Source: an uncultured virus (IMG/VR IMGVR_UViG_3300027917_000037) (lineage: Duplodnaviria > Heunggongvirae > Uroviricota > Caudoviricetes). From it: a stretch of 64,000 nt of DNA. The stretch lies in IMG/VR virus record IMGVR_UViG_3300027917_000037, one strand, 5' to 3'. This document shows, piece after piece, positions 11,818 through 56,055 of this stretch. Position numbers and translations under genes: made by a program. Within the stretch, counting starts at the first letter, position 1; every line of letters begins with the position of its first letter. A model generated the notes under the pieces. The model was not told the origin of the DNA, ran no database searches, and saw nothing but the letters and a program-made list of their open reading frames with translations.

Positions 11818-12510
11818 ATGTTAAAGATTATTCAGGCTGGAAATGCACTTCCATTCTCATATCCTGTTGATATTACATCCACTTTTCAGCCAGGTCAAAT
11901 AGGTCAGTTAAAACTTATTGGTCAAGATATTGTGGTTGGGTTATCTGATGGAACAGCACCGTTGGGAATTATAGATGATATTAGAACCAGTGCTTTTACT
12001 CAAACCGTTGTGGATGAAGTGGTTATTATAGCGGGAGCTGATATATATACTGACGGATATCGTTATTTTAATGGAACTGCATCAAGACAGGAATTAAATA
12101 ATGCTGGGTTAATGGCATCCAGTTTTATAGCCGATTATGAAGGGTTGGTTTTAAACCCAGTTAATGGTGTTTTAACTCTTCCTGCGGATGCGTTATTAAA
12201 CTGGGATGCTGATGGTGATGGCAATCCAGATAGCGTAAAGACAGTTGTAAATTATGTTTATCAAGTTCCATCGCTACCAGGCGATGATACAACTATTGGA
12301 AGCAACAGGATAACCATCTGGTTTCAAAGAGGTATTTTTGCTACAGACCAATTTGATTCTTTACAAAGATATCCTGTAAATGCAACTTTATTTGTTAATG
12401 AAGAGGGGAAGTTGACAAGCAGTCAACCAACATCTAATCATCCAGGTGTTGCAATGGTGACTGGGCCACCTTCATCTAATGTATCAAGTTTGGAATTTTT
12501 GTGGCTATAA
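11818..12510 (+). CDS. Putative capsid decoration/minor head protein
   Basis: Beta-rich; GSNRITIWFQRGIFATD...LFVNEEGKLT...VAMV parallels the 18396 protein; ATG 11818 follows GGGAG. Confidence 0.55.
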   Translation: MLKIIQAGNALPFSYPVDITSTFQPGQIGQLKLIGQDIVVGLSDGTAPLGIIDDIRTSAFTQTVVDEVVIIAGADIYTDGYRYFNGTASRQELNNAGLMASSFIADYEGLVLNPVNGVLTLPADALLNWDADGDGNPDSVKTVVNYVYQVPSLPGDDTTIGSNRITIWFQRGIFATDQFDSLQRYPVNATLFVNEEGKLTSSQPTSNHPGVAMVTGPPSSNVSSLEFLWL

Positions 12511-12528
12511 ATATTTGGAGGACATCTT

Positions 12529-12903
12529 ATGACTTTTTCAAAAGAAGACAAGGCTGCTTGGTTGGACAGCGAAATTATACGGGAGTTTGAAAAGATTGCT
12601 TTAGAAACAGATGTCCTCAATGGACCTCCTGCGGAGGCTTTCCAACCCCTTGAAACCGAAGAGGAGAAAGTATGGGAAGATGAAAGTGATGAAGATAAAC
12701 TCTTATCTGCCATTGAAGAGTTAGGTGTTACAGAAGAAGGAGAAGGGGATTTAAAGAAGGAACTTTCAGAAGTTTTTACTGCAAATCTTGTAACAAATCT
12801 CCAAAAACTTGCTCATCAGTTGGCAACAGAGTCCAAAATGAAAGCCGCTTATAAAATAGAGCGAACGATTATGAAATTAAAAAATCTACAGGGAGGCAAG
12901 TAA
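12529..12903 (+). CDS. Small head-region protein
   Basis: SEIIREFEKIALE shared with the 12904 and 16862 N-termini; C-terminal helical-hairpin motif. Confidence 0.65.
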   Translation: MTFSKEDKAAWLDSEIIREFEKIALETDVLNGPPAEAFQPLETEEEKVWEDESDEDKLLSAIEELGVTEEGEGDLKKELSEVFTANLVTNLQKLAHQLATESKMKAAYKIERTIMKLKNLQGGK

Positions 12904-18395: not shown

Positions 18396-19037
18396 ATGAC
18401 CCTTTATATTTATCAGCCAGGCGTTCAGCCACTAGGACAGTTTGATGTTCTTGATGCATATCTTGCTGGCATCAAAGGTGGTGAGATCGGAACTCTTTAT
18501 CCTGCAGCCAGAACGGTTAGTTCAACTGAAAAGGCAGCCAAAGATGCTCTTGATGGTTACACCAACCTTACCGATGTGAAGCGTGCTGCTGTTGCTAATA
18601 GCATTACTGCTACTACGCAGCGCCCACTGTGGTTGCTTGACGATGGTACAAGCGGCTATGGTACTCTGTTTGGTCAGGTCATTGGTACCCCTGTTGGTCT
18701 TTCCACTACTGGCACCAATCTTGGCCCACACACCTCAACTGGAAGCGGCAAAGTAACTTGCTGGGATAAGCCAGGCCTTTATGCCGTCTCTGTTGACGCA
18801 GTTGACACTGCTGCTGATGGTTTGGTAATTGCCAATTCTAGTTGTGATCCTGGGTTGAAACTCGATTGTACTGCAACCGGTCTGCTTACCCCAACTGGAT
18901 CTACTAATGCTGTTGGTGTTGAAGTTGGTCGCTTTGTAGAGTTCGAGACTAGCCCATCCTTGGTTAACACTCCAGCCTCGCTGGTCGGTGCTACTGAGGC
19001 GGCTGTTCGCGCGATTTTCCATTACAAAGTAGTCTAA
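18396..19037 (+). CDS. Putative capsid decoration (cement) protein
   Basis: Gly/Thr-rich beta protein immediately upstream of the capsid gene; GGAGG RBS; GSGKVTCWDKPGLYAV. Confidence 0.65.
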   Translation: MTLYIYQPGVQPLGQFDVLDAYLAGIKGGEIGTLYPAARTVSSTEKAAKDALDGYTNLTDVKRAAVANSITATTQRPLWLLDDGTSGYGTLFGQVIGTPVGLSTTGTNLGPHTSTGSGKVTCWDKPGLYAVSVDAVDTAADGLVIANSSCDPGLKLDCTATGLLTPTGSTNAVGVEVGRFVEFETSPSLVNTPASLVGATEAAVRAIFHYKVV

Positions 19038-24584: not shown

Positions 24585-25265
24585 GTGCCAAGGACACCTG
24601 ACTCATTTCCTGGCGTTCGGGAAGATGAGGGTTTAATACTATCTGATGACGGATATGGTATTCCCCAGGCTGAAGGCGGTTTACGCTACAGCGATGGATA
24701 TTTTTATGCCAAAGACTCTTATGGAGTCTTCAATTTAAGAAGTGGAGAAGGTGGTGTGGGGGATGTGCCCCACGCTCCTAATCATATCCATGGCGGATCT
24801 GATGAAATAGATGGAGATATACTTGATATTGATTTTGATCCCACACATTATACGCCAGATACGAGTCCATCGGAAGTTACAAGTTCTGAAGAACTTACAG
24901 CACATTTGGCTGGAATTGATGGATATTTGCATGACTTAGGTACTGACAAACTTGATATCGATGATCATAGAACACTTCGACATTTGATACATTTTGTTGA
25001 TGAAGGTCCTGGTGATGGCTTTGTGTCTGGTGCTACAAAACAAATATTACCTGCTGGAAATCCTTTCCCAACTCAAATTGTTTGGAAGGATTCTGGTGGC
25101 AACAATCTTGTTGTAAAAACAATCACTAGAAATGGAAATCAAACACCTGCAACAATCGAGTGGAAAATGTATGATTCAGATGGTGTATCAGTTTTAGCAA
25201 TTGTCACCGATACGATTAATTATTCGGGTATTTTTGAAATTTCTAGGACGAGGAGTATATCGTAA
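24585..25265 (+). CDS. Putative virion appendage/fibre protein
   Basis: HAPNHIHGGSDEI fibre-type motif; three DGY. Confidence 0.55.
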   Translation: MPRTPDSFPGVREDEGLILSDDGYGIPQAEGGLRYSDGYFYAKDSYGVFNLRSGEGGVGDVPHAPNHIHGGSDEIDGDILDIDFDPTHYTPDTSPSEVTSSEELTAHLAGIDGYLHDLGTDKLDIDDHRTLRHLIHFVDEGPGDGFVSGATKQILPAGNPFPTQIVWKDSGGNNLVVKTITRNGNQTPATIEWKMYDSDGVSVLAIVTDTINYSGIFEISRTRSIS

Positions 25266-26797
25266 TGGCTGGTGATTCCCCTGCTGCAATTTTGTTTGAT
25301 GCCTATGGAAATGAAATTGCACTTGCTGATGGTTATCAAATAACTGTTGATACAAAGGGAATACCTATCATTGTTGTAAACAACAATGATGAAGCAATGT
25401 TGGTTAGATCTGATAATGATGGATATTTATTAAGTACCGCTCGAATTGAAGATCCACTTCCAGCAGGAACTAATATTATTGGTGAGGTGGGTATAGATTC
25501 AACCAATACTGGCGGCTTGGCATTAGAGATTACTCAACAAACACTTGCCACAGAATCAACTTTGGTTGATGCTTATAACAAACTCGACAGCCTTGAATCT
25601 AAAGATTTCGCTACTGAAACCACGCTACAGACTTTGGCTACCGAAGCAACACTTATTGATGCTTATAATAAGTTGGACAGCCTAGAGGCTAAAGATTTTG
25701 CTACAGAGATTACCTTAACCAGTCTTGAAAGTAAAGATTTCGCTACGGAGACAACACTTCAAACTTTAGCCACAGAAGATACACTTACTGATGCTTACAA
25801 TAAATTAGATAGTTTAGAAGCAAAAGATTTTGCTACTGAGGCAACTCTGGCAAATTTAGAAGCCAAGGATTTTGCTACAGAAACCACGCTACAGACGCTT
25901 GCAACTGAAGCAACCTTAACAGATGCCTATAACAAATTAGATAGTCTTGAGGCGAAAGATTTTGCCACCGAAGCCACATTATCTGATGCCTATGAAGCAA
26001 TTAGAGATATTCTTTACACTGATGGTATAAAGAAGATTACAGATCCCTTACCAATAGGTGATAATGATATCGGTAGGGTTAAATTAATAGATGCTTACAG
26101 CACTCAGATTCCAATCTTGGATGGATATGTTCTAGAAACTACTGCTCCTGGATTACCAGTGATGGCTAAAAATGTGGTGGATGACTCTGCACAATTTTTA
26201 CACACTGATGAAGATGGCTATTTACAAGTAGTTTCTTCAAATACCTTTACCGTTAGGTCTAGGGGTGTGGTTGGAGCAGACTTTTCCAAGTCTGACATTA
26301 ATGCAACTGAAACCTACTATATTGGAATAGATTTAGATAATAATAGTGGAGCAGGACCATACAAACACGCCTGGTCATCAGGGGAATGGATCAACATTAC
26401 TGCAATTAATGGTTTACTAATTAAAGAAAAACCAGGAGATGAATGGGATGGTTTTGTTGGTGTGATTTTACGCATAGATGGAACAGATTCAGATATTGGT
26501 TGGCTTCAAATTGGTGCATTACATGCTCGCGATACTGGGGATTTCGAGTCTACAGCAGTTTCAGATAAATTCGATACTCCTTTAAATTTAGAGGTTAGTG
26601 GTGGAGATTTGGTAAAGATTGCGCTTGGTTATATATCAACCAGCGTTACGGCAGTTAATACTGGGATAACACTTTCAGATATACAGGGAAACAATGTTAC
26701 ACCTGCTATTGGTGACGTGGTGATAAAAGCTATTCGGTCGGCATCTAGTAGTGGTGTGGCAGATATACACTATTATATTGGATACTTAGTGGAGTAA
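25265..26797 (+). CDS. Putative fibre protein with coiled-coil repeats
   Basis: Repeated TLATEATLxDAYNKLDSLEAKDFATE; LPAGTNIIGEV and LPIGDNDIGRV motifs. Confidence 0.65.
   Translation: MAGDSPAAILFDAYGNEIALADGYQITVDTKGIPIIVVNNNDEAMLVRSDNDGYLLSTARIEDPLPAGTNIIGEVGIDSTNTGGLALEITQQTLATESTLVDAYNKLDSLESKDFATETTLQTLATEATLIDAYNKLDSLEAKDFATEITLTSLESKDFATETTLQTLATEDTLTDAYNKLDSLEAKDFATEATLANLEAKDFATETTLQTLATEATLTDAYNKLDSLEAKDFATEATLSDAYEAIRDILYTDGIKKITDPLPIGDNDIGRVKLIDAYSTQIPILDGYVLETTAPGLPVMAKNVVDDSAQFLHTDEDGYLQVVSSNTFTVRSRGVVGADFSKSDINATETYYIGIDLDNNSGAGPYKHAWSSGEWINITAINGLLIKEKPGDEWDGFVGVILRIDGTDSDIGWLQIGALHARDTGDFESTAVSDKFDTPLNLEVSGGDLVKIALGYISTSVTAVNTGITLSDIQGNNVTPAIGDVVIKAIRSASSSGVADIHYYIGYLVE
25541..25995 (+). 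repeat. Degenerate protein repeats (DAYNKLDSLE x4; KDFATE x6)
   Basis: Visible in the translation; codons have diverged. Confidence 0.85.
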
Positions 26798-26799
26798 AT

Positions 26800-27411: not shown

Positions 27412-28019
27412 TGTCATTTGAAGATCATCAGGTTATAAAACAAGCAGTCAAGTATGATGAGTATGGTGTACCATTTGCCGTTTCGGATGGTTATGAGGTG
27501 CCTACAAATACCCCTAGTGTTATTTTCACTGGCGCAGATGAATATGGATATGGGACAAATGTCTCTATGGTGGAAGATAGCAATGTTCCAGATTTATATA
27601 GAGTAGCAGTTACAGGTAAGGTATCAATACAAATTGTTGCCACACCAGTTGGTGGAACTAATATTCAGGTTGTTGCAGATACTCCTTTGGGAATAAAAAA
27701 ACAGACTTCACCACACGATACGGTCTATGTAATACCAAATGAAAAAAAGTTATATGTAACACAAATTGTTGTTGGTTGTCAGGGTGATCCAAGTGTTGAT
27801 GGTTCAAAATGTGAACTTATATTTAATGATGGTAGTGATCATCTGTTAGAAAGGGTATATGTTATGGGATTGACCACATTCAATTACCCAAATGTTTGTA
27901 CAACGAGAGATGGTACAGAAATGATAGGAAATGGAACCAATACTTTTATTGTAAGAAGAATAAGACTGAGTGTTGCTGAGCAGGAAATTGATGCTGTGGC
28001 AAGAGGATATATAATATAA
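27411..28019 (+). CDS. Putative virion appendage protein, paralog B
   Basis: Tandem paralog of 26800; TAATG coupling. Confidence 0.65.
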   Translation: MSFEDHQVIKQAVKYDEYGVPFAVSDGYEVPTNTPSVIFTGADEYGYGTNVSMVEDSNVPDLYRVAVTGKVSIQIVATPVGGTNIQVVADTPLGIKKQTSPHDTVYVIPNEKKLYVTQIVVGCQGDPSVDGSKCELIFNDGSDHLLERVYVMGLTTFNYPNVCTTRDGTEMIGNGTNTFIVRRIRLSVAEQEIDAVARGYII

Positions 28020-41304: not shown

Positions 41305-44300
41305 ATGACTACTAATTACCCAGGAGCAATCGACGGCTATTCTCAAATTCGCATTGTGCGTGATGGGATAGACGAAATTATTGCTGGAGATCACAATGAT
41401 TTACGCAGTGCTGTTGTTGCCATAGAACAAACTTTAGGTATTAATCCGCAAGGTGCTTTTGGATCTGTTACTGCGAGGTTAAATGATGCGTATGCAAATA
41501 TCGAACAGCATGCAGCAGGTAATGCTCCTCGGCACACAGATAGTCAAATTGACAGCCCTGCAAGATCTGGTGCTGTATATAGTTTGGCAGATGGTACTGT
41601 ATCTTCGCAAATTGTTGAGTTATTGGGTAATTTAAATTCGGTTAAATCTACTACAACAACATTAGAAACTGCCGTTGCAGATTTGGAGAGTTCAGTAAGT
41701 AATGCTTCCATAGCGCGAGCGTTTGATGGTTTTGTAATGGAAGGTATGGCTGTTACACAATATGCTGGTGGTCCGAATGCTGCTGTTGCATCTGGGCGTG
41801 TAACTGTTGGTGGAACTTATGCTACCTATTCTGGTGGTCATATAACTGTTAGTTCAACTCCTGGCACATATTATATATATGCGCGAATAAGTGGTGGGAG
41901 TTTAACCCTTGGCGCTGCTACCTTAGCCTCTTTACCTCTAGATCCTGAAAACTCTATTGTGTTACTTCATAAAATTACACACTCTGGTACAACATGGAGC
42001 AGTGATAGTACGGAAACTGCAGACATACGTCGTTTTGGAATGTTTGTTAATAATAAAAACTGCTTTACCGTTGGAAATACCCCAAGTGCTGGTGCGGATG
42101 GCTATGGGTGCGATTTTACAAGTTTAAGAGGTGCTGTTGAATATGTTAGAGTGCTTAATACTAGCACAAAATCTCTTTCTACAAAAAAGATTATGTTATC
42201 GAGCGATATTGAAGTGCAGACTGCTGATGCTAATATTCTTCTCGACATTGAAGGGATGGAGATTGATGGTGCTGGTCATAAAATAACTCTTTCTGATGAT
42301 GAACCTATATTCCTTGTGGAAGCCGATGATATTTGTATTAAGAATTTAGTACTTGAAGGTACAATGGGCAGCCCAAGTGATGGTTGTCTTGCCAGAGTTG
42401 GATATTCTAGCACTGTAGATGGTACGCGTATTGCTGATTGTGTGGGATCTGGTTTGCCATATTTCTTGCGATGTGGCGATGCTTCTGGAACCACAGCCAT
42501 GAATACTGCAGTAATTTCCAATAATAATATTGAAGTGCTTACTGGTGGTATCGAATATGTTTCGTCTACTAAATATCACCAATCCATTAATTCTAGTATT
42601 ATTGAGGGCAATAGGTTTTCTCAAGGAACTTCGTTTAGTGCCACCTCATATAGTGCGATTAGAGTGTCTATGGATTGTGTTGTTACGAATAATGTTATCC
42701 AGGGTGGTTTTGATACTGGAATACTTATAGGTAAAGGTGAAAGGGGTGTAATATCCAACAATGTAATCATTGGCTATTCCTCTTCCGCCCTGATGAATAA
42801 TGGTATAAGCGCTTGGACTGATGACACAGATGACGATACAGGTATCATTATCTCAAACAATATAATCAGAGGTGTTGTTAATTATGGAATTGATTGTGCT
42901 GCTGGCACTGCAGACGGTCAATATTTTATAGTTTCGAATAACCTAATAGATAATTATGAAACAGATAGACCAGCAACTATGGTTGGAATTAGAGGTACTG
43001 CCAGCAATGAGCAAACTTGGATAGTTGGTAATAAGATAACAGCACCTGGTGCTTATGGAATAACAGATGCTTTTTATACTATCAATAACCAAATATTGGG
43101 GCACACTAGTGTTACGACTACTACGGCAGCAATTAATAATGTAACTGGTCTTATTGGTAATATGGCATGTAATAACCACATCTATAATTGTGCAGGTGTG
43201 GGTATTGCTTTGCAAGGGGCCGATAAATGTATTGTAACAAGCAATCTCATAACTTCAAGCAATTCTGGTGCGACAACTGCTATAACGAGCACAGGAACCG
43301 AAACTGCTATCATTGAGGGTAATATAATCAAAGATTATGCATCTTGTATATCTATGGTTAGTGGTCAAAATCTTACAGTTTCTAATAACAGGTTGATAGA
43401 TTTTTCTACCAACGGAATAGTTTTTGATGCCTCTGATGAGTGTATTGTTATTGGGAATTGGATTGTTGGTGCTGGAGGAAATTCTGGTACGGCAATCTCT
43501 GGTTTTGATGCCGGATCGATCATTGCAAACAACCATATTTCTTATATAGGTCAGGGTGGTGGTGGTTACTTTGCAATTATTCCTGAGAGTAGTTCTGCAG
43601 ATAATGTAGTAATAAGTAACAATGCTTTTAATAATATTAGGTGGGGTGGGATTATGGGTTGCACAGAAAGTGTTATTTCTGGCAATTCATTTTACAATGT
43701 ATTTGATACTTCGATTGATTGTGATGGTGCTGCCGAATTGTTAATTGCAAATAATGTATTTATGGGAGTTGGAAATTCTGTTGCAGCAATAGCAGATATA
43801 GGAAATAGATCGTCAATAAATGGAAATTTAATTAGTCTTTATGGAACGGGTGATGGGGATGAAACAATTCGAGCAGGTTCTTCCAAAACTTATTGTTCCA
43901 TCACAAACAACACAATTATAGAATGTAGAGGCGCTGGTATAGATTGTAATAACGGAAGTTTTTTCCTTGTTGCTAATAATTATTTGCACGGTAATGGGAG
44001 TAACTCTGGCGATGGTATTATAAATGTAGAAGAGTATTCTTCCATAGTTGGAAATGTAATAGGATATTATGGAAACCTAACCTCCAATAATGCCATTGAG
44101 ACAGCGGCCGGTGCAGGTAAAACAGTAATTGCTAACAATTATATACACCACCCCGGCTCAGGGATGGACACAGTAATATCTCTAGGTGTCGAGACATATT
44201 ACTTTGTTGTTGGTAATAGTCTATTAGATGTGCCAAAAGTGGGTATAGATTGTGGTGTTTCATCATGGTCCGTGATTGCTAATAATTTTATCAAGGGGGT

Positions 44301-45480
44301 TTCTTCAGGGACCACTGATATGAATGCGATCCTTGGTGTAGGGAATGCTAATCTTATACAAGGAAATTATATAATCAATCCCAATTATAATGGAATCGTA
44401 GTTGATGGTAGTTCCGTTTACTGTGCAGTAAATTATATTTATAATGCAAACAACTATGGAATTCACATTCGTTATGCAACCTGTGATAACTCAAGTATTA
44501 TAGGAAATTACATAACAACAGGTAACCGTGGAATACAAGTAGATGGTGCAGACCATATAGTTATACATGATAATAACATATATCCAACAGGTAATGGAAT
44601 GGAATTCAATTCTGTTGAATATCTTTCCCTACACAACAATTATATATATAATGCCGGTGCCAATGGAATTGTTTTTATTGATTGTCTATTCGTGTCGGCA
44701 TGTTCTAATTTCATCTATAATTCGGGCGATCATGGTATGGCTCTTTCTAGTACTGGTAATGATTGGGTTGTTAGTAATAATTATATTGGTTCGGCAGGTG
44801 ATTCTGCAATTCACGCTACTAGCGGAACATTTTTCCGTATGCGTTTTTCTGGTAACTATATACATGATCCCGCTGATGTTGGAATACTATTAACAGCAGG
44901 TAATGCTGTGATTAATGACAACATTATTTATCATAGCGGTTTGTCGGGAATGCAACTTTCTGGCAATGGGCAAACTATTGTTGGTAATTGCATACATTCC
45001 CCTGGAATTAGTGGAATTGAGGTAACGTCTGGAGGAACGGATAGTGTAATTAGCAACAACCACATAACTTATGCTTATTTCGGCTACGGCATACGCTTAA
45101 ACGCAAATGCACATAGATCAAACATATGTGGTAATATAATCCGAACTGCATTACATGGTATAGAAACCCTTGGCTGTGATGATTGTGTTCTTTCATCAAA
45201 CTTGGCTTATGATGTGACGAACAAATCATTCTCTGTTGCGGGCGGCGATGATTGTATTGTAATAGGAAATAGATCAGTTTCTTCAGGGTCAACACCATTA
45301 GATTGCTCAGTATCTTATGGTACTCTTATAATCGGTAATTGGTTTGATACCTCGACAATTATTAACGGAGCCAATTATTTGGTAATAGGTAATTTATGCG
45401 AAGGTGGAACGCCAGCTGGTTGGAGTGGGCCACCTGCAGGTGTGATTGTATCTGGTACTAACTATGAGACATATGCATAG
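41305..45480 (+). CDS. Large parallel beta-helix tail spike/fibre
   Basis: Dozens of I-x-x-N-x-I (ISNN, IIGN) rungs; N-terminal NYP...LRSAVVAIEQTLG anchor. Confidence 0.85.
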   Translation: MTTNYPGAIDGYSQIRIVRDGIDEIIAGDHNDLRSAVVAIEQTLGINPQGAFGSVTARLNDAYANIEQHAAGNAPRHTDSQIDSPARSGAVYSLADGTVSSQIVELLGNLNSVKSTTTTLETAVADLESSVSNASIARAFDGFVMEGMAVTQYAGGPNAAVASGRVTVGGTYATYSGGHITVSSTPGTYYIYARISGGSLTLGAATLASLPLDPENSIVLLHKITHSGTTWSSDSTETADIRRFGMFVNNKNCFTVGNTPSAGADGYGCDFTSLRGAVEYVRVLNTSTKSLSTKKIMLSSDIEVQTADANILLDIEGMEIDGAGHKITLSDDEPIFLVEADDICIKNLVLEGTMGSPSDGCLARVGYSSTVDGTRIADCVGSGLPYFLRCGDASGTTAMNTAVISNNNIEVLTGGIEYVSSTKYHQSINSSIIEGNRFSQGTSFSATSYSAIRVSMDCVVTNNVIQGGFDTGILIGKGERGVISNNVIIGYSSSALMNNGISAWTDDTDDDTGIIISNNIIRGVVNYGIDCAAGTADGQYFIVSNNLIDNYETDRPATMVGIRGTASNEQTWIVGNKITAPGAYGITDAFYTINNQILGHTSVTTTTAAINNVTGLIGNMACNNHIYNCAGVGIALQGADKCIVTSNLITSSNSGATTAITSTGTETAIIEGNIIKDYASCISMVSGQNLTVSNNRLIDFSTNGIVFDASDECIVIGNWIVGAGGNSGTAISGFDAGSIIANNHISYIGQGGGGYFAIIPESSSADNVVISNNAFNNIRWGGIMGCTESVISGNSFYNVFDTSIDCDGAAELLIANNVFMGVGNSVAAIADIGNRSSINGNLISLYGTGDGDETIRAGSSKTYCSITNNTIIECRGAGIDCNNGSFFLVANNYLHGNGSNSGDGIINVEEYSSIVGNVIGYYGNLTSNNAIETAAGAGKTVIANNYIHHPGSGMDTVISLGVETYYFVVGNSLLDVPKVGIDCGVSSWSVIANNFIKGVSSGTTDMNAILGVGNANLIQGNYIINPNYNGIVVDGSSVYCAVNYIYNANNYGIHIRYATCDNSSIIGNYITTGNRGIQVDGADHIVIHDNNIYPTGNGMEFNSVEYLSLHNNYIYNAGANGIVFIDCLFVSACSNFIYNSGDHGMALSSTGNDWVVSNNYIGSAGDSAIHATSGTFFRMRFSGNYIHDPADVGILLTAGNAVINDNIIYHSGLSGMQLSGNGQTIVGNCIHSPGISGIEVTSGGTDSVISNNHITYAYFGYGIRLNANAHRSNICGNIIRTALHGIETLGCDDCVLSSNLAYDVTNKSFSVAGGDDCIVIGNRSVSSGSTPLDCSVSYGTLIIGNWFDTSTIINGANYLVIGNLCEGGTPAGWSGPPAGVIVSGTNYETYA

Positions 45481-45492: not shown

Positions 45493-45795
45493 ATGGAATG
45501 GGAAATCAATAATACTTTCATATCCGCAGTTGACGGCTATGATGGTTATGAATTTCATGGGTATTTAGACGGTTATCTTTCAGATGAAAACTATTTACAA
45601 GAAAGTGTTTTCGCTCTAAGTATAGCTGACGTTTATAGTTTAAAAAATACAGTATATGCAAAGTATAATTATTATACATCAATAGAAAGTCCATCTGATA
45701 AGATTACTAGAAGGATTCTTCGTCTTTCTCAAATGAAAACTAGATTTGATGGTATTATAGCTGGATTGGTAAGAGATGGTTATGACGGTTATTAA
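45493..45795 (+). CDS. 100-aa DGY-rich protein
   Basis: VDGYDGYEFHGYLDGY ... RDGYDGY-stop; AGGAG RBS. Confidence 0.65.
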   Translation: MEWEINNTFISAVDGYDGYEFHGYLDGYLSDENYLQESVFALSIADVYSLKNTVYAKYNYYTSIESPSDKITRRILRLSQMKTRFDGIIAGLVRDGYDGY

Positions 45796-46502: not shown

Positions 46503-49500
46503 ATGGCTGACAGCAACTATCCTAACAGCCTAGACACTGATTTGGAACTCCCGCAAGTAGATGATAATATTACTGAAATCGGCGGAGAAGCGATCAATGG
46601 TTTACGCAGTGCAGTGTTTAATATTGAAGAAACTTTAGGTTTGGACCCACATGGTGCCGCTGCTGATGTTGCAACTAGGTTGGATCAATCTTTAAATCCA
46701 GATGGAACCATCAAGGCTTCAGCACTAAGTGCCGTTGGTTTGGTTACTTTACCTATTACGAACAGTCAGATTGCGACCAACGCTGCAGTAGAAGAGTTAA
46801 AGTTAGATCTTGATTATTCTACGGTACAGTTAAAAACATGGATAGACGAACTTAATGTTTTTATGCGTTCTGTAAACGAAAAGGTAATTGTAGATATTTT
46901 CAACTTATCTCAGCATATTGCACATCCGAGCGCTTATGGGCGCCATTGGACGCAAGATATTGATGGATATACTGGAACCTATGCCTCCTATAATCTCCAG
47001 GGAATAATTACAGATTTAGATACACGCATTATCGATCATGTTACTGATCTTGTTGATGCCCATGATGCTAGTGCCATTTCTGCTGATGATACAAATCTTG
47101 ATTTTACTGCAACCGATGTGCAAACCGCATTAGAGGGTTTGAATGATTTGGGTATTACTGCAGTAATTAGCCATCAAAACAACCAACATGGAAATGGTAT
47201 TTTACGCACTCAAAACACAAATCTGAATAATAGCGATCATAATAAAGTTTTAGTTACTGCTACATCTATATTAGGTGGTGTTACGGCAGGTGATACCAGT
47301 ATTCAGTTTTCTTCCGCCCCGACAGGGCTGGCGGAAGTATTGAGAGGGGATGTTGTAGAAATAGATACTGGAACAGACACCTATCGTTTTGATGTTAATA
47401 AAATAGAAACTGGATCTCCTAGTGTTGTATATATTTTTGGTAATATACCAGTAAGCGTTGGCAGTGCGACAGCGACCATATATCGCACTTCTGAAGAAAC
47501 ATATGCTCCTTCGCCGCTTATTTTAACACTTAGGCAAACCTATGAAGGTGGTTCGGCTGCTGGTGCAATAGTACAAATGATACACCCTAGTGCTCCCTAT
47601 TTATTAAGTAACGGGGCGGATCCACGATCGCTATCTTCAACTATTAAAAATATCAAAATAGCCTGGTCAGTTGGGTCGACAACCGGGGAAACAGAGGAAA
47701 TCGATGTACATAGTATGATGCAAAACTTTGCGCCCACAAGTGGTTATCCAATTGGCACATGGACAGTAGAAAACTTTGTCGTAGCTCTCAACAACTTGTT
47801 TAGGGCAGAAAGTACTTCTGGAAGTTACTCAGGTTCGGGATTCCCTTATCACTATCCATTGATTGCTTTTGCCTATAAAGGCGAGATAGGAATTGCACTT
47901 GACGAAGGGGTAGATGGATATGTGGAACTGCGCGCAATCGAACCCCCTTCATCAAACGGTGCATGGAGCGCTTTGGGTTTTGTTGAAGGGGATAGGGCGT
48001 ATTATGTAGAACCCCGTAGTTGTTATATTGATGGCTATGAAATCTCTTCTGTTAGAAAGATTATCGATACTACTGGTGAAATCAACTCTGCACCAGACGG
48101 TATTATAAATATGGCAGTCAATCCAACTACTTCTGGAGTTCCAGAGGCAGGAATAGTTAGGTTAAAAAATAGTTCCACAGATGATGGGACTTATGTTTAC
48201 AACAATATATCAGTCAACACACTGCTTATCGCAGAGCATAATTTTGTTGGAAGCGGGGGAAGTATAGATGTTGAAGTTTATGCTGATTCCTTTAGAATTA
48301 AAAATGAAATAGATCACGTTTTGTATGAACTTTTTGTGGATGGTTATGAAAATACATCTGTAGAATTGCGAGGAGCGGAGAGAGTAAAATATAGGGCAGC
48401 AAATACGGGAAACCCAGAAGAGTGGTTTGATATTATTAGCATTTCTAGAAACCTTGGTGCTTCTGAAATGCGCATATATATTGATGGTTCCGACAATGTT
48501 ACTCTTGGTGAACGCTCTGGTCTTATTGGTATAACTAATCCTGGCGAGAGTGTCAATTTATATGGCTGTGGTGAAGGTTATGTTTTCAAACTGTATGATG
48601 CTGGTGGAGTAAACTATGTTGAATTAATGATTGTAGATACTGGATTCTCGGGCTCCACTAATGGAATTGATCTTGATATCTTTGACAGAATTAGTGAAGA
48701 AAAATACATTCAAGTTGGTACTGTTACTTATAACGCTGCAAACTTAACTACAAGTTTATCCCACTTGGAAGATACCAGGGCTAAAGGAACGGTTAGAAGA
48801 AAGGACATAGGAGAAGATTATACTAGAGATTATGTTACCTATCCAGTTTCCCGATTAAGGGGTTGTGGTGTTTTCAGAGGTCTTGAAATGTCAGGGGTGG
48901 GTGGTAGTACTCTTACAGTAACTGGTGGTGAAGTTCTGGTTGATGGGATTGTGTATCAGATTGAGGGAAGAGATTTTGCTATTCCAGAAGATAGTGCTTC
49001 TCTATATTATCTCGTATATGTGGATAATCAGGGCGTCTTACAACTTCAAAGAGATAATTACCATGCTTCTGGTGTTCTCACCACGCCTGAAGATTATAAT
49101 GTTTCCGTAAGTTCTGATAAGGCCTTTATAGGCGGTTTATCTGTCAACTCTTCAAATGTTATTACTTGGATTGGAGACTATCGTCGTTTTGTAGGAACAA
49201 TTGATGAAAAACTAGAAATTACAGTAAGTGATGACCCCAAATATGGATCTTTTACCTCCCTACATTCTGCGGTTAATTGGATTGGTCTTCAAGAAACTGG
49301 GGGCGGATCCCCATCATGTACTATAACAGTCAAAGGTCAACTTACCGTGGATTTATCTGACACTGATAATTATCCAGTTCCCCTACCTTATGGGTGTACT
49401 TTACGGGGAGATGGCCGAGCCACTGGCTCCCTTGCTTCAAAGGGAGGTAGAATATTATTACAAAACAGTGGTGCTAGTTATGCTGTAAATGTGCGTAACG

Positions 49501-51527
49501 GTATAGTTAGGGATTTGGATTTTCAGTTTGACTCTGGTGCCTCTTGTTCTTACATTTTATCTATAGGAGATAATGGTGTAGTGGAACGGTGTCTCTTTGA
49601 TAATGTTTCAACTTCTGCACTTAATTTGTCTGGCACCAGTATAAGGATAATAGGCAATAGGTTTTACTACATAAGTTCTGGTACGGCAGCAATTGTTAGT
49701 AGTGGAACAATGACTGATGCTATAGTTGCAGAAAATTATTTGGATGTTGCATCTTCAGGTAGCGCCTTTATGAATCTTGGGAGTAATGATTTAAGTTACT
49801 CTTTTGTTCGCAATAATTATGCAAAATTTAGGGCAACAGGTGTATTTATAACATGTGATGATGTTTCGTATTCTACAGTTGAATCAAACACCATTCTATT
49901 TACCGGATCTTTTAGTGGCACCGGAAACCGTGGCATTGATGTGGATGATTTTACTTATGTGCGTGTAGTGAATAATACATGCTTCGGAGTGGGAACTTTT
50001 ATATCAGCTGATACTATAAATCAAAGTTCTATTAGCGGGAATCATTTTAATAGCATTTATCGTTTTATTCAGGCTATGGGTGGCTTTATAGATGTTATTA
50101 TTGATTCGAACATCATCGTTTCTTCTCAGAGTATGGATGATATTATATATGCTTTAGATTCAAATTATGTTATTATTACAAGGAATGATTTTCAACTAAA
50201 TGGCACGGTGGGGTCGGTTATAGATGTTGGGGGTTCTTATGCATATTATGTGTTAATACAAGGTAATAATATTACTATAGGTACCTCCAGTACGTCGGCT
50301 GGCGATATGATTGTTTTTGGCAGTTCTGCAGAAATCACGATCAGCGACAATTTTCTAGGTGCCTTTGCAAATCAAACGCCAGCCAACAGCATAATCCATT
50401 TTTCTGGAAATATAGACTGGGCTGTAATTGCGAATAATGTCATCGAGAATATGGTATCATCCTCACTTGGAATGCTATATGCATTATATTTTAGTAGTAC
50501 CGGCAGCACTGGTAATGCGGTTGTCACAGACAATACTATTTTAGATTTCAATGGAACCGGTGGTGCGGGAATTAAGGCTACAGAACATATTTTTAAAATA
50601 AATGACAACTATATTTATAACTGTTACAATTGTTTGAACTTGACGAGTGAGGCGGCAATTGGAAATATAATTTCCGGTAATAGATTTTTCAGTTCTGCTA
50701 GTGCAATTACTGTTTATTTGAATTGGACAACAGCATCTGACGAAGGCAGAAATATATTTACTAACAATTATGTATATAATGATACAGCGACTGCGGCACC
50801 TTTAGTCCAAATTAGTGGCGCTCAGAATAAATGGAATGTTATTACAAACAATGTACTAGAATTTGGGCAAGCTTCTGTCGATAGATCCTTATTGTTTGTA
50901 GATGGCGCTTTTCATGTGATCTCAAATAATGTTTTTGTTGGTGATTCATTCACGCACGCGACTTATGCTCCAGTATTATGTTATGCCGATGATACATTGA
51001 TTTCAAATAATGTTTTTGCCATTGATATTGCATCTGTTACAGCTGCCACCATGATTAAAATTTCGGGTGCAACAAATGTTGTTGATTATTTTAACAAGGG
51101 ACAAACATATCAAGCAATACTTCCTTTTTCAAATTCAGATGGTGATATGACAAAAGACATTGGCGTTACCAGCAATGTGGTATTATATAGTACCACGATT
51201 GGTGATGCACAGGTTTTGGAATTTACTGCAAGAGATGTTCCTGTGGGAGCAGAAATTACAACAATAGAAGTGCTTATGGAATCTGCCCTTAGCTCTAGCT
51301 GGGATGCTTTGACGGTAGCCCTTTACGAACGGGATAGTTGGGATGAGCCGACAAACACAACTCAAATTGCTTATGATACATTTAAGGGAACAAGTAGCAC
51401 ACCAGTAGTAAAAACTATTAGTTCGGTTTCTTTTGAAATGGGTACTAAGCCAGTATGTCTGAAGTTCGACTCGGAATATTCATCAAACCTATGGATTTGG
51501 ACTCCCAGGATCACTTACATTTTATAG
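46503..51527 (+). CDS. Large tail fibre/spike with a C-terminal parallel beta-helix
   Basis: N-terminal NYP...LRSAVFNIEETLG shared with 41305; AHDASAIS...TDVQTALE fibre motif; beta-helix rungs. Confidence 0.85.
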   Translation: MADSNYPNSLDTDLELPQVDDNITEIGGEAINGLRSAVFNIEETLGLDPHGAAADVATRLDQSLNPDGTIKASALSAVGLVTLPITNSQIATNAAVEELKLDLDYSTVQLKTWIDELNVFMRSVNEKVIVDIFNLSQHIAHPSAYGRHWTQDIDGYTGTYASYNLQGIITDLDTRIIDHVTDLVDAHDASAISADDTNLDFTATDVQTALEGLNDLGITAVISHQNNQHGNGILRTQNTNLNNSDHNKVLVTATSILGGVTAGDTSIQFSSAPTGLAEVLRGDVVEIDTGTDTYRFDVNKIETGSPSVVYIFGNIPVSVGSATATIYRTSEETYAPSPLILTLRQTYEGGSAAGAIVQMIHPSAPYLLSNGADPRSLSSTIKNIKIAWSVGSTTGETEEIDVHSMMQNFAPTSGYPIGTWTVENFVVALNNLFRAESTSGSYSGSGFPYHYPLIAFAYKGEIGIALDEGVDGYVELRAIEPPSSNGAWSALGFVEGDRAYYVEPRSCYIDGYEISSVRKIIDTTGEINSAPDGIINMAVNPTTSGVPEAGIVRLKNSSTDDGTYVYNNISVNTLLIAEHNFVGSGGSIDVEVYADSFRIKNEIDHVLYELFVDGYENTSVELRGAERVKYRAANTGNPEEWFDIISISRNLGASEMRIYIDGSDNVTLGERSGLIGITNPGESVNLYGCGEGYVFKLYDAGGVNYVELMIVDTGFSGSTNGIDLDIFDRISEEKYIQVGTVTYNAANLTTSLSHLEDTRAKGTVRRKDIGEDYTRDYVTYPVSRLRGCGVFRGLEMSGVGGSTLTVTGGEVLVDGIVYQIEGRDFAIPEDSASLYYLVYVDNQGVLQLQRDNYHASGVLTTPEDYNVSVSSDKAFIGGLSVNSSNVITWIGDYRRFVGTIDEKLEITVSDDPKYGSFTSLHSAVNWIGLQETGGGSPSCTITVKGQLTVDLSDTDNYPVPLPYGCTLRGDGRATGSLASKGGRILLQNSGASYAVNVRNGIVRDLDFQFDSGASCSYILSIGDNGVVERCLFDNVSTSALNLSGTSIRIIGNRFYYISSGTAAIVSSGTMTDAIVAENYLDVASSGSAFMNLGSNDLSYSFVRNNYAKFRATGVFITCDDVSYSTVESNTILFTGSFSGTGNRGIDVDDFTYVRVVNNTCFGVGTFISADTINQSSISGNHFNSIYRFIQAMGGFIDVIIDSNIIVSSQSMDDIIYALDSNYVIITRNDFQLNGTVGSVIDVGGSYAYYVLIQGNNITIGTSSTSAGDMIVFGSSAEITISDNFLGAFANQTPANSIIHFSGNIDWAVIANNVIENMVSSSLGMLYALYFSSTGSTGNAVVTDNTILDFNGTGGAGIKATEHIFKINDNYIYNCYNCLNLTSEAAIGNIISGNRFFSSASAITVYLNWTTASDEGRNIFTNNYVYNDTATAAPLVQISGAQNKWNVITNNVLEFGQASVDRSLLFVDGAFHVISNNVFVGDSFTHATYAPVLCYADDTLISNNVFAIDIASVTAATMIKISGATNVVDYFNKGQTYQAILPFSNSDGDMTKDIGVTSNVVLYSTTIGDAQVLEFTARDVPVGAEITTIEVLMESALSSSWDALTVALYERDSWDEPTNTTQIAYDTFKGTSSTPVVKTISSVSFEMGTKPVCLKFDSEYSSNLWIWTPRITYIL

Positions 51528-52027: not shown

Positions 52028-52807
52028 ATGAGTACATCACATAGAGTTTATTCGGATTTGTTCCAACTATCTGATTTTGTTCAGCAAGTTGCCGTATCAC
52101 AATCCAAGAATCTCATTATAGATGTTTTACGAGAATACTTCAAACAAGATACATTTTATAGGTATTCAACGGATGGTTTTGGGTTTCCATTGACACCTAA
52201 TGTTACCGATTTGCCTCCAGATATTCAAGAAGAGCGCACAACTCGTATTTTTATTGGGGACATCTTCCGCTTCGACAAGAGATATTGGCCCGCAATTGTA
52301 GTTAGACACGCTTCTGGAAGAACCTATCATGTAAGTTTCAATCAAAATTATACGACCAAATATAGACTTGATTTGGTGGTTGATGGTTATGGAGAGCGTT
52401 CCTATATTAGAATACCAACGCATAAGGTTGTTGCGGGCGCTTGGGATCAGAGTTTTGATGTTCAAATCGCTGCGGAAAGTATTCCAGATAGGGAAGAATT
52501 AACGGATATTGTATCCTCTTTCTTCATTGGTAAAATTCGCCAAGAGATTTATGAATCGGGACTTTTTATTCGCAATGTAAATATTGGAGGGGAAAGGGAA
52601 GAGGATTGGGGCAACGATAAGGTATATCTGCAAAACATCACTCTTGATACATATTCTGAATGGCGACGAGAAATTCCAATCAATGCTAACGATCTGTTGG
52701 AAACAATTAATTTCTGTTTCAATTATGGACTTTTTGGTGGTGAGAATTTTGCCACTTCAACAACTCTTGTAACTACAGAGGATAACACCATAGGAATAGA
52801 TGTTTAG
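52028..52807 (+). CDS. Putative tail completion/terminator protein
   Basis: Located before the sheath gene; WPAIVV...DREELTDIV pattern. Confidence 0.5.
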   Translation: MSTSHRVYSDLFQLSDFVQQVAVSQSKNLIIDVLREYFKQDTFYRYSTDGFGFPLTPNVTDLPPDIQEERTTRIFIGDIFRFDKRYWPAIVVRHASGRTYHVSFNQNYTTKYRLDLVVDGYGERSYIRIPTHKVVAGAWDQSFDVQIAAESIPDREELTDIVSSFFIGKIRQEIYESGLFIRNVNIGGEREEDWGNDKVYLQNITLDTYSEWRREIPINANDLLETINFCFNYGLFGGENFATSTTLVTTEDNTIGIDV

Positions 52808-53384: not shown

Positions 53385-53405
53385 CTATCAATAACCAAAT
53401 ATATA
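53385..53405 (+). promoter_or_regulatory. Putative late promoter for the tail operon
   Basis: CTATCAATAA-ccaaa-TATATA. Confidence 0.7.
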
Positions 53406-53508
53406 CTTGAATAAGTTTATTGTAGTTAAACCTCGGTTTTCCTGCAGTTTTTAGCAAAATTGAAAGGAGTATATATCAACAATCAAAAATAGTTGGAGGA
53501 TTGTTTAA

Positions 53509-56055
53509 ATGGCTAATATCCCTGGTATTTTAGGTTATATTCAACCGCAAACCATCGCAAGAGTAAGAACTCTTTCGAGGGCTGTCTCTATTCCTGGCGG
53601 TCTTAGAGTGCTAAGTGTTATTGGTGAGGGCTTAAGAGAAGAAGTTCTCATCGATTCTGCTGCTGGAGATGGGACTGATGGATGGGATCCTACATTTACA
53701 GTAGCATCTGATGGATATGGTAGGTTCTTTAGGACCGCTAACTATCCTTTGGTTGAAAACCGTTCGGAGCTATATTTGAATGGCTCAACATTAAGAGTTT
53801 TAGAAGACACTATTGATGGAAACTCTTTTTCGTCATCTTATGATGCAAGAATTGACCCAACTACTGGAAAAATTGAATTGCAATCAGCCAGTTTTGTCGA
53901 TCAGGGTGGAGAATATTATCGTGCCAGTAGCAGCAATACTGGGGATGGTTACCTATCCGCCCTTACACTTGCAGATACAAATGCTCCAGCGGAAACCTGG
54001 ACCATTCGTTGTACCAGCGTTTTAAGAGATAGTTATAGTGCTCCTATAAGAGGTGAGGCAACATTTATTGCCAGCGGCTCTGTTAGCGGTCAACTTTCTG
54101 ATGAATATGGCCAACCATACACATGGAAAAGTGATGGGAATGCGGTAAGTAATGGGATTATCTCCTTTGCTATCTATAATCTGTCTCCTAACCAGCCATT
54201 TACTGTTGGTGATAGGTTTACTGTGGAAGTTAGTAGCCGCGTCCTCCAATCACGAGACCAACTAGAAGCACGCTATGTTGCCACGCTCGATCTGAATGAT
54301 GCACAAACCTTTACTGATCCAAGTAAACTATTTGATAAGCATGGTACCGCTAGCACAACCAACACTTTATCTTTGGGAGCACAGATGGCTTTTGAGAACG
54401 GCGCAACTAGCGTTCTTGCCATTCAGGCCAAGCCACCGCTACCACGAAGAACTTCTGAAGTTGTTCTAGCAGTTTATGATTCTATTACGGGAACTGGAGG
54501 TGCATCAGGTAACTCTGATCCAGATGATCTCATTTTCTATGTTGATGCTCCTGGAAAACCCGATACAGATACAGAAGTGTATTTCTTCTTACAAAATACA
54601 GATGGAACGGAAACTCAAATTTTTCCAAATAAGGTGAGTTTCTATGATCCAACTATTACTGCTTCTTTCTCACAATATGAGACTACAGGCAGTTCAACAA
54701 ACCTTTTGGCTGATTTCATGGACCCAAATCAAACTGGTCAACCGTTTAGTTATACGGTAGTGAGTGACGATCAAATCGAGGCGGGCGCATCTGATGGTCA
54801 AATCACTCCAATTGGTGTTGGCAGTACTGCTTGGTTCTACAGCGCATCTGCACAATTTACTGCCGCTGATGCATATGCAAGCCCGGCTAAGGAACTTGAC
54901 TTCCATAACACCGCAACCGCCAATTTGGGTCGCTATGAGATTATTGCAATTCAAGATGAAAATACTGTCAAGATTCAAAGGGCATCTGGATCTTTTGTAA
55001 CAGAAACTAGTGTTTCTTGGCAAATGCTTACCAGTGGAAATCAATCCCAGAGAATCCTGTTCACTACAGACCTTGCTCTTGCTCAAGGCAAGGGGCTTCG
55101 TATATCCTATATAGACTACTACGATGCTGATTTCTTCGATGCAAACTGGGCAGAAGTTCTTGATGTTCTAGAAACTCAAGATGCACAAATTCTTGTGCCC
55201 CTTCCAACACAAACTTTCTCTGCTATTCAGCAAGCGTTTAGAGTACACTGCGAGCGTATGTCTTCTCCATATTACAAGCGTGAGCGCATGCTTCTAACTG
55301 GTGCTCTACAAGGTCTTGACCCAGAACATGTTACTGGTGAATCGATGGCTGCTGTCGAAGATATTGGTATTTTGGAAGGAATTCAAGGCGATGACCCGGA
55401 AGAGGTTTTGGCTGGAAATATTGAAGATTTGGCTAACTATGATGTTAGTGTAAACTTCGGTGACACTTATCGAGTTGTGTATTTCTATCCAGATGAAATT
55501 GTCCGAGTAATTAGTGGCTCAAGAACAACTTTACCTGGTTATTATATGGCCGCTGCAGCTGGTGGTTATCTGGCTGGTGAGCCAAACATTGCACAGCCTC
55601 TTACATTTAAAACATTGGTTGGTTTCACTATTCTTAATGATAAGATTTTTAAGGAGACCGTGCTTAATTCGCTTGGTGATAAGGGCATTACCGTTGTGCA
55701 ACCAGTTACTGGCGGCGGGAGAGTTCTTCATGGTAAAACAACCACACAGAGTGGATATCCAGAAGAAGAGGAAGTGTCCATTATCTTTATTCGTGATCAG
55801 GTTGCAAGAACCATGCGCCGTAGTTTCCAAGCATTTATTGGACAACCAGAAGATCCTACATTGGGGCCCTCTCTTACAGCCAGGGCTATTTCGTTACTAA
55901 ATGCGTTTGTTTCTCAGAATCTTATTACCGCATATCGTAATTTGTCAGTAAACCGTGATGAAACAGAACCAAGACAATGGAATGTGGTTGTTGAAGTACA
56001 GCCCAACTATCCCGTAAATTGGATCTTTATAGATGTTAGTGTTGGTTTGTTTTAA
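53509..56055 (+). CDS. Contractile tail sheath protein
   Basis: HCERMS....RER; MAAAAGG...QPLTFK...GITVV...RVLHGKTT...EVSIIFIRD...FIG...PNYPVNWIFI sheath C-terminal pattern. Confidence 0.9.
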   Translation: MANIPGILGYIQPQTIARVRTLSRAVSIPGGLRVLSVIGEGLREEVLIDSAAGDGTDGWDPTFTVASDGYGRFFRTANYPLVENRSELYLNGSTLRVLEDTIDGNSFSSSYDARIDPTTGKIELQSASFVDQGGEYYRASSSNTGDGYLSALTLADTNAPAETWTIRCTSVLRDSYSAPIRGEATFIASGSVSGQLSDEYGQPYTWKSDGNAVSNGIISFAIYNLSPNQPFTVGDRFTVEVSSRVLQSRDQLEARYVATLDLNDAQTFTDPSKLFDKHGTASTTNTLSLGAQMAFENGATSVLAIQAKPPLPRRTSEVVLAVYDSITGTGGASGNSDPDDLIFYVDAPGKPDTDTEVYFFLQNTDGTETQIFPNKVSFYDPTITASFSQYETTGSSTNLLADFMDPNQTGQPFSYTVVSDDQIEAGASDGQITPIGVGSTAWFYSASAQFTAADAYASPAKELDFHNTATANLGRYEIIAIQDENTVKIQRASGSFVTETSVSWQMLTSGNQSQRILFTTDLALAQGKGLRISYIDYYDADFFDANWAEVLDVLETQDAQILVPLPTQTFSAIQQAFRVHCERMSSPYYKRERMLLTGALQGLDPEHVTGESMAAVEDIGILEGIQGDDPEEVLAGNIEDLANYDVSVNFGDTYRVVYFYPDEIVRVISGSRTTLPGYYMAAAAGGYLAGEPNIAQPLTFKTLVGFTILNDKIFKETVLNSLGDKGITVVQPVTGGGRVLHGKTTTQSGYPEEEEVSIIFIRDQVARTMRRSFQAFIGQPEDPTLGPSLTARAISLLNAFVSQNLITAYRNLSVNRDETEPRQWNVVVEVQPNYPVNWIFIDVSVGLF

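Follow-up and report, generated by a model that had tools for sequence, protein, structure and literature searches.

A short Asp-Gly-Tyr motif recurs on predicted outward-facing virion proteins in one lineage of giant phages

The tripeptide Asp-Gly-Tyr (DGY) recurs across virion proteins encoded on a 64,000-nt stretch of DNA from an uncultured virus (IMG/VR IMGVR_UViG_3300027917_000037, Caudoviricetes), hereafter the window, which is the structural module of a phage related to Bacillus phage G. It occurs 47 times in 14 of 57 proteins (57 plus-strand open reading frames, ORFs; 20,199 residues), its enrichment is confirmed, and its virion-wide occurrence is a property of one phage lineage, shared by close relatives of the window. 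We favor a reading in which selection has repeatedly installed DGY, as a short linear motif, on outward-facing structural proteins, where it is read by a factor.

The observed count stands far above that of any null model applied to the window. Composition predicts 3.6 occurrences and a dipeptide Markov model 8.6; shuffling within proteins (n = 2000) gave a mean of 3.9 and a maximum of 11, and shuffling in blocks of 10, 20, and 40 residues (1000 shuffles each) gave means of 5.05, 4.36, and 4.24 with maxima of 18, 12, and 12. DGY is the top-ranked tripeptide of the window (Poisson p 1.9e-35), followed by DAY (18 versus 3.3 expected), and the other five permutations of the same three residues occur 0, 5, 5, 7, and 0 times against 3.6 expected. 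Tyr follows 47 of the 159 Asp-Gly pairs, and Asp precedes 47 of the 91 Gly-Tyr pairs. Composition, whether global or local, is ruled out as the source by the global shuffles, the block shuffles, and the permutations. A motif at the level of DNA is ruled out as well: all 47 plus-strand matches to GAYGGNTAY fall in frame 0 of the genes and none in another frame, the minus strand holds a single match, and codon usage within DGY is that of the rest of the window. Nor does one repeated domain or tandem repeat family account for the sites, since the 47 sites form 45 clusters at a flank identity of at least 35% and the flanks carry at most 0.23 bit. A first-pass annotation, made from the sequence alone, had counted about 45 DGY in 14 mostly unrelated proteins, expected a few by chance, and proposed selection on the peptide rather than a DNA repeat; the exact count, the 3.6–8.6 expected across the composition, Markov, and shuffle models, the unrelated contexts, and the in-frame matches with ordinary codons agree with it on each point. 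Low-complexity arrays do contribute to the count (a second DGY lies within 12 residues of 16 of the 47 sites, and 31 are isolated), and an ordinary turn, DAYG[NAD]P, that is also present in DGY-free tail sheaths contributes to the DAY signal. The probability that DGY is no real feature, merely a by-product of composition, a DNA motif, or one repeated domain, is nevertheless negligible, given the shuffles, Markov model, and permutations far below 47, the in-frame matches, the 45 contexts, and the same tripeptide as the top outlier of three other genomes; this artefact is excluded.

The carriers of the window are the following.

11806..12510, plus strand: 234-amino-acid protein, a decoration protein in the first-pass annotation; one DGY (residue 83); no Pfam or PHROG family matched.
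18396..19037, plus strand: 213-amino-acid head-decoration-like protein, directly upstream of the major capsid gene; DGY at 53–55, DAY at 20–22.
24585..25265, plus strand: 226-amino-acid appendage-cluster protein; three DGY (22, 37, 112); no family matched.
25265..26797, plus strand: 510-amino-acid appendage-cluster protein with an internal two-fold repeat; four DGY (22, 52, 286, 317) and 11 DxY.
26800..27411, plus strand: 203-amino-acid protein, paralog of 27411–28019 (56% identity); two DGY (16, 26).
27411..28019, plus strand: 202-amino-acid paralog of 26800..27411; one DGY (26), with DEY at the other paralog's DGY position.
28405..29547, plus strand: 380-amino-acid protein with a CBM_5_12 carbohydrate-binding module (E 5e-8); one DGY (34).
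33632..35257, plus strand: 541-amino-acid fiber-like protein (weak PHROG tail-fiber match, E 6.6e-4); seven DGY (27, 36, 46, 133, 148, 174, 300).
38008..41286, plus strand: 1092-amino-acid protein with an intein, a neck protein in the first-pass annotation; 13 DGY.
41305..45480, plus strand: 1391-amino-acid beta-helix tail spike (Beta_helix, NosD, and tail spike PHROGs); two DGY (10, 265).
45493..45795, plus strand: 100-amino-acid Tyr-rich protein; five DGY (14, 17, 26, 95, 98), the C-terminus being DGYDGY.
46503..51527, plus strand: 1674-amino-acid spike-like protein; four DGY (154, 471, 510, 613).
52028..52807, plus strand: 259-amino-acid protein, tail completion in the first-pass annotation; one DGY (119).
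53509..56055, plus strand: 848-amino-acid tail sheath (PHROG tail sheath match at residues 672–845); two DGY (68, 146).

The motif had been proposed for fiber, spike, sheath, neck, and decoration proteins, which is borne out and is common to a clade; the earlier counts of seven in the 33632 fiber and 12 outside the intein of the 38008 protein also match. That intein (Hint_2, Intein_splicing) spans residues about 492–914, its single DGY lies at residue 537, and the array of its host protein reads SDGYGADGYRDGYDGY...FDGYDGYY; the long, intein-bearing length occurs in about one-eighth of 96 homologs. The module in the 28405–29547 protein suggests an appendage that binds polysaccharide. Searches for relatives of some carriers gave little: the 45493..45795 protein has no homolog in five related contigs and matched no family, and tblastn against 50,697 phage records returned one unrelated partial match for the 25265 protein and none for the 33632 protein. 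The complementary observation, the absence of the motif from internal proteins, holds, though it lacks statistical weight within the window, where only 1.34 DGY would be expected in the 48 DGY-free ORFs (of 62 in a second ORF call), with a probability of 0.26 of finding none.

DGY density sets close relatives of the window apart from more distant ones. In a survey of 50 capsid loci of at least 10 kb, 16 of the 17 at a capsid identity of at least 80% carry at least 3.8 times the expected DGY, against 3 of 33 at 72–78%. By proteome, three relatives join the window as DGY-rich (observed versus expected: window 47/3.9, G005 161/14.1, G006 87/9.4, G002 74/17.8) and two are DGY-poor (G007 21/13.5, G010 22/10.2), so that enrichment amounts to 9–12 times per close-relative contig and to 4 times over the complete genome of G002. 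Over whole contigs, coding-strand and other-strand DNA matches number 102/8 (G002, 442 kb, rated complete), 130/8, 69/1, 165/5, and 90/3, and in five more distant contigs 26/2, 33/2, 16/4, 26/2, and 11/2. DGY is the top tripeptide of the window, G002, G005, and G006 (log10 p −108 in one of the three relatives and −52 and −23 in the other two); G007 and G010 have no comparable outlier tripeptide of any kind, and thus no replacement word. Within G002 the excess is confined to two blocks, each enriched 9–10 times: the tail, fiber, and head block (41 versus 4.5) and a second block at 249–276 kb (15 versus 1.5), the remaining 482 ORFs being near background and not depleted (18 versus 11.9). The DGY-poor contigs are enriched only in big fibers by a sugar island (17 versus 2.14 in G010, 6 versus 1.38 in G007), with DGY at or below expectation in their remaining proteins. 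The carriers are not the same in every sub-lineage: in G005, the richest contig, the sheath (49% identical) has no DGY. The main load of G005 (L125) is a protein of 3634 residues at 1490–12394 with 57 DGY, comprising about 25 repeats, Ig-like by eye, with two DGY each, plus an array FDGYIDGYVDVDGYIDGYFVPDGYQLDGYFDDGYDGY.

Bacillus phage G, the nearest cultured phage, belongs to the same capsid lineage and likewise has a decoration gene directly upstream of the capsid gene; unlike the window, it has no virion-wide DGY. Considered as a cultured model, it was rejected, as its 52 coding-strand DNA matches in 497 kb are about background; its gp420-431 hold 14 DGY, mostly in one repeated domain.

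What is enriched is an exact peptide with almost no context. In a set of 1024 proteins from DGY-rich relatives, 297 DGY stand against 39.6 expected (7.5 times) and DAY reaches 2.2 times, and every near-variant stays close to expectation: NGY 1.1, EGY 0.8, SGY 0.9, and DSY 1.0 times; with Tyr replaced, DGF 1.1, DGW 1.5, and DGH 1.2 times; reordered, YGD 0.8 and DYG 0.9 times. Over 287 unique sites, the most informative flanking position carries 0.23 bit, with Leu (2.6 times) and Phe (2.0 times) preferred before the Asp (position −1). Consecutive sites are often close together (100 of 266 pairs at most 30 residues apart), and low-complexity arrays occur as (DGY)6 and (DGY)5 in G010, as the DGYADAYADGY type in G007, and as SDGYGADGYRDGYDGY in the window. 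The tyrosine corner of Greek-key domains has Gly at Y-2 and often Pro at Y-3; DGY sites do not match it, with Gly at Y-1 and Leu, Ser, Gly, Ile, or Phe, not Pro, at Y-3. Part of the DAY excess is an ordinary structural turn, DAYG[NAD]P, and not a DGY variant, because it is conserved in the DGY-free sheath group: the sheath homologs have DxYG[x]P turns (DSYGAP, DEYGQP) at window residues 174–177 and 198–201, and the sheaths of about 50% identity, which have no DGY, keep these turns as DAYG[AD]P. The G010 arrays lie in one protein (L121, 64991–74878), (DGY)6 at residues 2115–2132 and (DGY)5 at 2587–2601, each built from one repeated codon triplet, and look like recent slippage in a fiber of an otherwise DGY-poor lineage.

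Comparison of orthologs traces how sites are gained and kept. Among 115 full-length sheath homologs, the 82 at an identity of at least 57% hold one to five DGY each (mean 2.59, expected 0.19), and 32 of the 33 at about 50% have none (mean 0.03). Site 146 is kept as DGY in 81 of 82, site 68 in 65, and site 429 in 40, such that the core sites 146 and 68 are kept better than the average column (mean conservation 0.76). At those columns the DGY-free group holds [DN]GT, PDG-RHF, and DG[S/E/Q], so that new sheath sites arose by gain of Tyr after a pre-existing Asp-Gly turn. In the neck protein (first 500 residues, 96 homologs), each homolog has 5–12 DGY (mean 7.05, expected 0.21), distributed over 30 alignment columns of which five are near-universal (the array at 339–371), two are occupied in about half, and 23 are sporadic. 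Homologs of the decoration protein at 18396..19037 carry at least one DGY in 27 of 27 cases at an identity of at least 37% and none in 13 of 15 cases at 31–37%; the site follows a conserved AADV at the start of an indel-rich stretch, and the DAY at residue 20 of the window protein aligns with DGY in four relatives. Orthologs of the spike, tail-completion, and decoration proteins have one to six DGY in the DGY-rich contigs (G002, G005, G006); those of the DGY-poor G007 and G010 lack the motif. For the 46503..51527 spike-like protein the counts are 3, 5, 6, 0, and 0 in G002, G005, G006, G007, and G010, and the 52028..52807 site is kept in the first three and absent in the last two. Orthologs of the 11806..12510 protein have the motif in L003, L005, L006, L020, L017, L013, and L016 and lack it in G002, L007, and L010. 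The first-pass annotation had asked whether homologs lack the motif at aligned positions, and for the sheath, spike, tail-completion, and decoration proteins such homologs exist.

Predicted structures give a mixed picture of where the sites lie. In the AlphaFold2 model of the 18396..19037 decoration protein (predicted local distance difference test score, pLDDT, 78), DGY 53–55 falls in a coil (39–61) between strands 30–38 and 62–67, in 10-residue blocks of pLDDT 61–65. The fold search for this protein gave no match at E at most 0.001, only weak capsid-decoration rows, with a weak likeness to capsid decoration or cement chains (8hdt_G, probability 0.66, TM 0.48). The sheath model (pLDDT 82.5) is confident at both DGY sites (80–90): strand 148–154 begins with Y148, directly after the coil that contains D146 and G147 (pLDDT about 90), and DGY 68–70 precedes strand 73–75. 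No match was found with the sheath profile against PDB sequences; the core of the modeled fold matches the phage 812 chain 8q1i_O (VIA Z 31.3, root-mean-square deviation 2.5, 307 residues aligned) and the pyocin sheath 3j9q_A (Z 27.0, 2.8, 308 aligned). Because minimal sheaths align with only about 300–315 residues of the 848 in this protein and the family match lies at 672–845, the DGY sites of this sheath probably belong to extra, non-core domains, an indirect placement in that the fold tool gives the first and last aligned residue only. Extra domains of other sheaths face outward.

In the window, the sites are concentrated toward the N-termini: 18 of the 47 lie in the first 60 residues, with 10 of the 14 carriers having one there (p 7e-7); by protein quintile the counts are 22, 17, 5, 1, and 2, and the last 40% of the protein holds 2 of 47. 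The N-terminal parts of fibers and spikes usually face the particle. This bias is not seen in G002, G005, and G006, where the last fifth is somewhat poor, and N-terminal docking was therefore rejected as a general rule. The proposed outer-surface location is only partly borne out, given the low-confidence decoration loop, the well-ordered sheath turns in the presumably non-core part of that protein, and the N-terminal sites of the window.

Exactness, absence of a flank requirement, arrays, alternative columns, and the step change among orthologs of unchanged fold together argue that the three side chains themselves matter and that something recognizes them. What such a factor would recognize is the exact pair of side chains: the carboxylate of Asp and, two positions on, the hydroxyl of Tyr, separated by one small residue. 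We infer that the motif is read, that the reader is a glycosyltransferase, and that the acceptor is the Tyr. Tyr-linked glycosylation is, tentatively, the most plausible form of recognition, on account of the sugar islands described below and of the Tyr glycosylation known from S-layers: a phage-encoded glycosyltransferase would attach a sugar to the Tyr of DGY in the cytoplasm, before or during assembly, and the resulting particle would carry a glycan coat. The fuller proposition, a lineage-wide DGY code on the virion exterior that is read by a phage enzyme linking sugars to Tyr and whose carriers are redrawn by Tyr substitutions after Asp-Gly turns, is possible but somewhat doubtful.

Candidate readers are at hand in the relatives. 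Islands of about 20 kb, combining nucleotide-sugar synthesis with 5–10 transferases, lie directly downstream of the fiber genes in G002, G005, G007, and G010. The G002 island (293.7–313.2 kb) encodes a two-domain GT4 protein, a 1129-residue GT2 protein, a GT47-like protein, methyltransferases, an aminotransferase, a nucleotidyltransferase, a GDP-mannose dehydratase, and epimerases; a second sugar block of G002 has a CMP-sugar synthetase and an adjoining GT29 sialyltransferase-like protein. Considered as a lineage marker, the GT2 protein gives a mixed pattern, being complete in G002 and G003 alone and matched in part in G004, G005, and G007. Homologs of the first GT4 domain lie beside the DGY-bearing fibers in 8 of 10 contigs, DGY-rich and DGY-poor. 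Given that DGY-poor contigs are enriched only in the big fibers next to the island, an old pairing of fiber arrays with a transferase, with later spread of the tag in the lineage of the window, fits the distribution.

A number of observations weigh against reading by a glycosyltransferase. The window itself has no Pfam-detectable glycosyltransferase, sulfotransferase, or kinase among 59 ORFs scanned. Since the islands and the GT4-like gene are also found in DGY-poor lineages, they do not explain the step change. The GT4-like protein is a generic GT-B enzyme whose matches to the protein O-glycosyltransferases SdgA/B and GtfA are below threshold, and the islands could instead serve DNA or host polysaccharide. 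No enzyme specific to DGY-rich contigs (G002, G005, G006, and the window) was found in comparison with G007 and G010, a comparison of little power among fragmentary contigs, in which 432 of 580 G002 ORFs have no homolog. The major capsid protein and both tube-like proteins have no DGY in all six genomes compared, and the well-ordered sheath turns also fit a structural role.

Two readings dispense with an enzyme. DGY may be a binding micro-site, the Asp carboxylate and Tyr phenolate (i, i+2) binding Fe3+ or Ca2+ or a host glycan, with many weak sites over the particle giving avidity or stability. The exact chemistry required, the tolerance of a small middle residue (DAY at 2.2 times, and aligned with DGY in orthologs), the clustering of sites and acidic Tyr arrays, and the identity of the carriers as fibers, spikes, and decoration proteins are all consistent with this, but one binding geometry is hard to expect from a tripeptide in 45 unrelated contexts, and DGY also occurs in sheath domains and Ig-like repeats that are not necessarily trimeric; we consider it unlikely. 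Alternatively, DGY would be a structural or assembly motif without an external reader, a tight Asp-Gly turn with Tyr opening the next strand, favored for stabilizing exposed beta-rich domains or docking them on the particle. The placement of sheath Y148 at the opening of its strand and of DGY 68–70 before the next, the Leu and Phe at position −1, the above-average retention of sheath sites 146 and 68, and the N-terminal bias of the window would follow from such a role. Against it stand the turn-equivalent words NGY, DGF, and DGW, which are not enriched, the same-fold orthologs that manage without DGY, and phage G without the virion-wide pattern; neither the (DGY)5–6 arrays nor the low-confidence decoration loop can be a turn followed by a strand, and the N-terminal bias is missing in G002, G005, and G006. 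This, too, seems to us improbable.

Another chemistry at the same residues is very unlikely: DGY as an acceptor for sulfation, phosphorylation, or oxidative Tyr cross-linking, or as a site of Asp-Gly succinimide chemistry. Asp near Tyr fits Tyr sulfation and kinase sites, and the sugar islands of G007 and G010 do hold sulfotransferase genes, yet both contigs are DGY-poor and no sulfotransferase was found in the window, in 355 scanned G002 ORFs, or in the 23 G005 ORFs downstream of the fiber genes. The G002 scan covered ORFs of at least 140 residues, leaving out 15 boundary-crossing and all shorter ORFs. G002 encodes one Hanks-type kinase, one PP2C phosphatase, and one Cys phosphatase, the last also present in the window; the kinase has no homolog in other contigs and the Cys phosphatase is missing from G005, the richest contig. 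No tyrosinase or peroxidase family turned up, the tyrosinase-type search covering the same G002 ORFs. Asp-Gly-Tyr peptides are reported to serve as aspartimide-prone models.

Known systems offer partial parallels to the preferred reading of DGY as a motif recognized by a glycosyltransferase. Protein glycosylation sequons include N-x-S/T and the Bacteroidota O-glycosylation motif D-S/T-A/I/L/V/M/T. DGY resembles such three-residue sequons in that it is very short, asks next to nothing of its flanks, is dispersed among numerous unrelated surface proteins, and is gained or lost at permissive loops; the Bacteroidota motif also starts with Asp, and enrichment of DGY on its carriers is pronounced (47 versus about 4, and the top tripeptide in four genomes). 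Sequons differ in having Asn, Ser, or Thr acceptors and extracytoplasmic enzymes, where the only hydroxyl of DGY is on Tyr and the proteins are cytoplasmic phage products. Mycobacteriophage virions are reported to be glycosylated by phage-encoded glycosyltransferases, with glycans at the C-termini of capsid and tail-tube subunits (Freeman et al., 2023, as cited in PMC12619734). The likeness lies in transferase genes carried by the phage; DGY is instead internal, is absent from capsid and tubes, and has only 2 of 47 window sites in the last 40% of the protein. In bacterial S-layer proteins, beta-Glc and beta-Gal are attached to Tyr at sites of variable surrounding sequence, 2–4 per protein, by oligosaccharyltransferase transfer during secretion (PMC2943079). 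This shares a Tyr-linked sugar on a repetitive surface protein, and no DGY rule is given there.

For the binding micro-site, the parallel is phage T4. Its long tail fiber (gp37 tip) holds iron in HxH "His boxes", which, like DGY, are short motifs of residues i and i+2 recurring in the fibrous virion proteins of a single phage group; the residues there are His, only trimeric fibers are involved, and the metal is proven, where DGY offers Asp and Tyr, also in sheath and Ig-like repeats. No paper on DGY in phage virions was found in the phage and DGY literature outside subscription journals, nor any on phages among the Asp-Gly-Tyr papers listed as matches, in keeping with the earlier remark that no such phage system is known to have been described.

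The remaining genes place the window among its relatives. The plus strand carries every large ORF, and further structural genes were identified by PHROG and Pfam scans:

19125–20156, plus strand: major head protein (phrog_2522, E 1e-77).
56077–57324, plus strand: two tube-like virion proteins.
within 6591–10532, plus strand: protease-like region.

The capsid gene is 72.7% identical to that of Bacillus phage G (9% of the DNA query aligned) and the major capsid protein 50% identical; relatives of the latter are encoded on 409 IMG/VR stretches, and the closest IMG/VR record, G001, is a 23-kb fragment. A homing-endonuclease-type gene (HNH_repeat, 20309–22333) lies directly 3′ of the capsid gene, with a small HNH gene nearby (23957–24289). 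Inside the structural module, 29663–32851 encodes a patatin-like phospholipase and a metallophosphoesterase, together with an ARC/Mpa-like proteasomal AAA ATPase. Against TIGR03689 the ATPase reaches 266 bits, under the 505-bit cut-off, and it has a homolog in none of five related contigs; the patatin-like gene has a weak homolog in G005, and the phosphoesterase has weak ones in G005 and G007 (26–31% identity). A 500-residue protein at 3968–5470 combines HExxH near residue 116 with a Cys-phosphatase domain (IHCYYGQDRTG, CX5R signature; HC-x5-R), with homologs in G006 and G002 (the latter above the Pfam Y_phosphatase2 cut-off) but in neither G005 nor G007; as a candidate reader it was rejected, being absent from DGY-rich G005. 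On the opposite strand upstream of the sheath, 52804–53295 encodes a 163-residue protein with three paralogs in G002. The left-edge ORF (2–1654) has a LigD-type 3′-phosphoesterase domain; its G002 homolog has an extra 2′-5′ RNA ligase domain and adjoins an ATP-dependent ligase. The complete 442-kb genome of G002 (L081–L103) also encodes a PARP-like protein, ThiF/E2-like proteins, a serpin, PrkA-SpoVR-DUF444, tubulin, chaperonin, trigger factor, IF3, EF-Ts, RF-1, and S21.

If the motif is read, DGY would provide a simple sequence rule for the outward-facing proteins of uncultured giant phages and a handle on how their particles are coated or stick to hosts. Should the reader indeed link sugars to Tyr, DGY would be the first defined Tyr-glycosylation sequon, and the resulting glycan coat over the whole particle would be the first reported in a tailed phage; a Tyr-directed sequon would represent new biochemistry as well as a useful protein-tagging tool. 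If DGY is instead a metal or glycan site, it would bear on the binding of hosts and trace metals by large aquatic phages.

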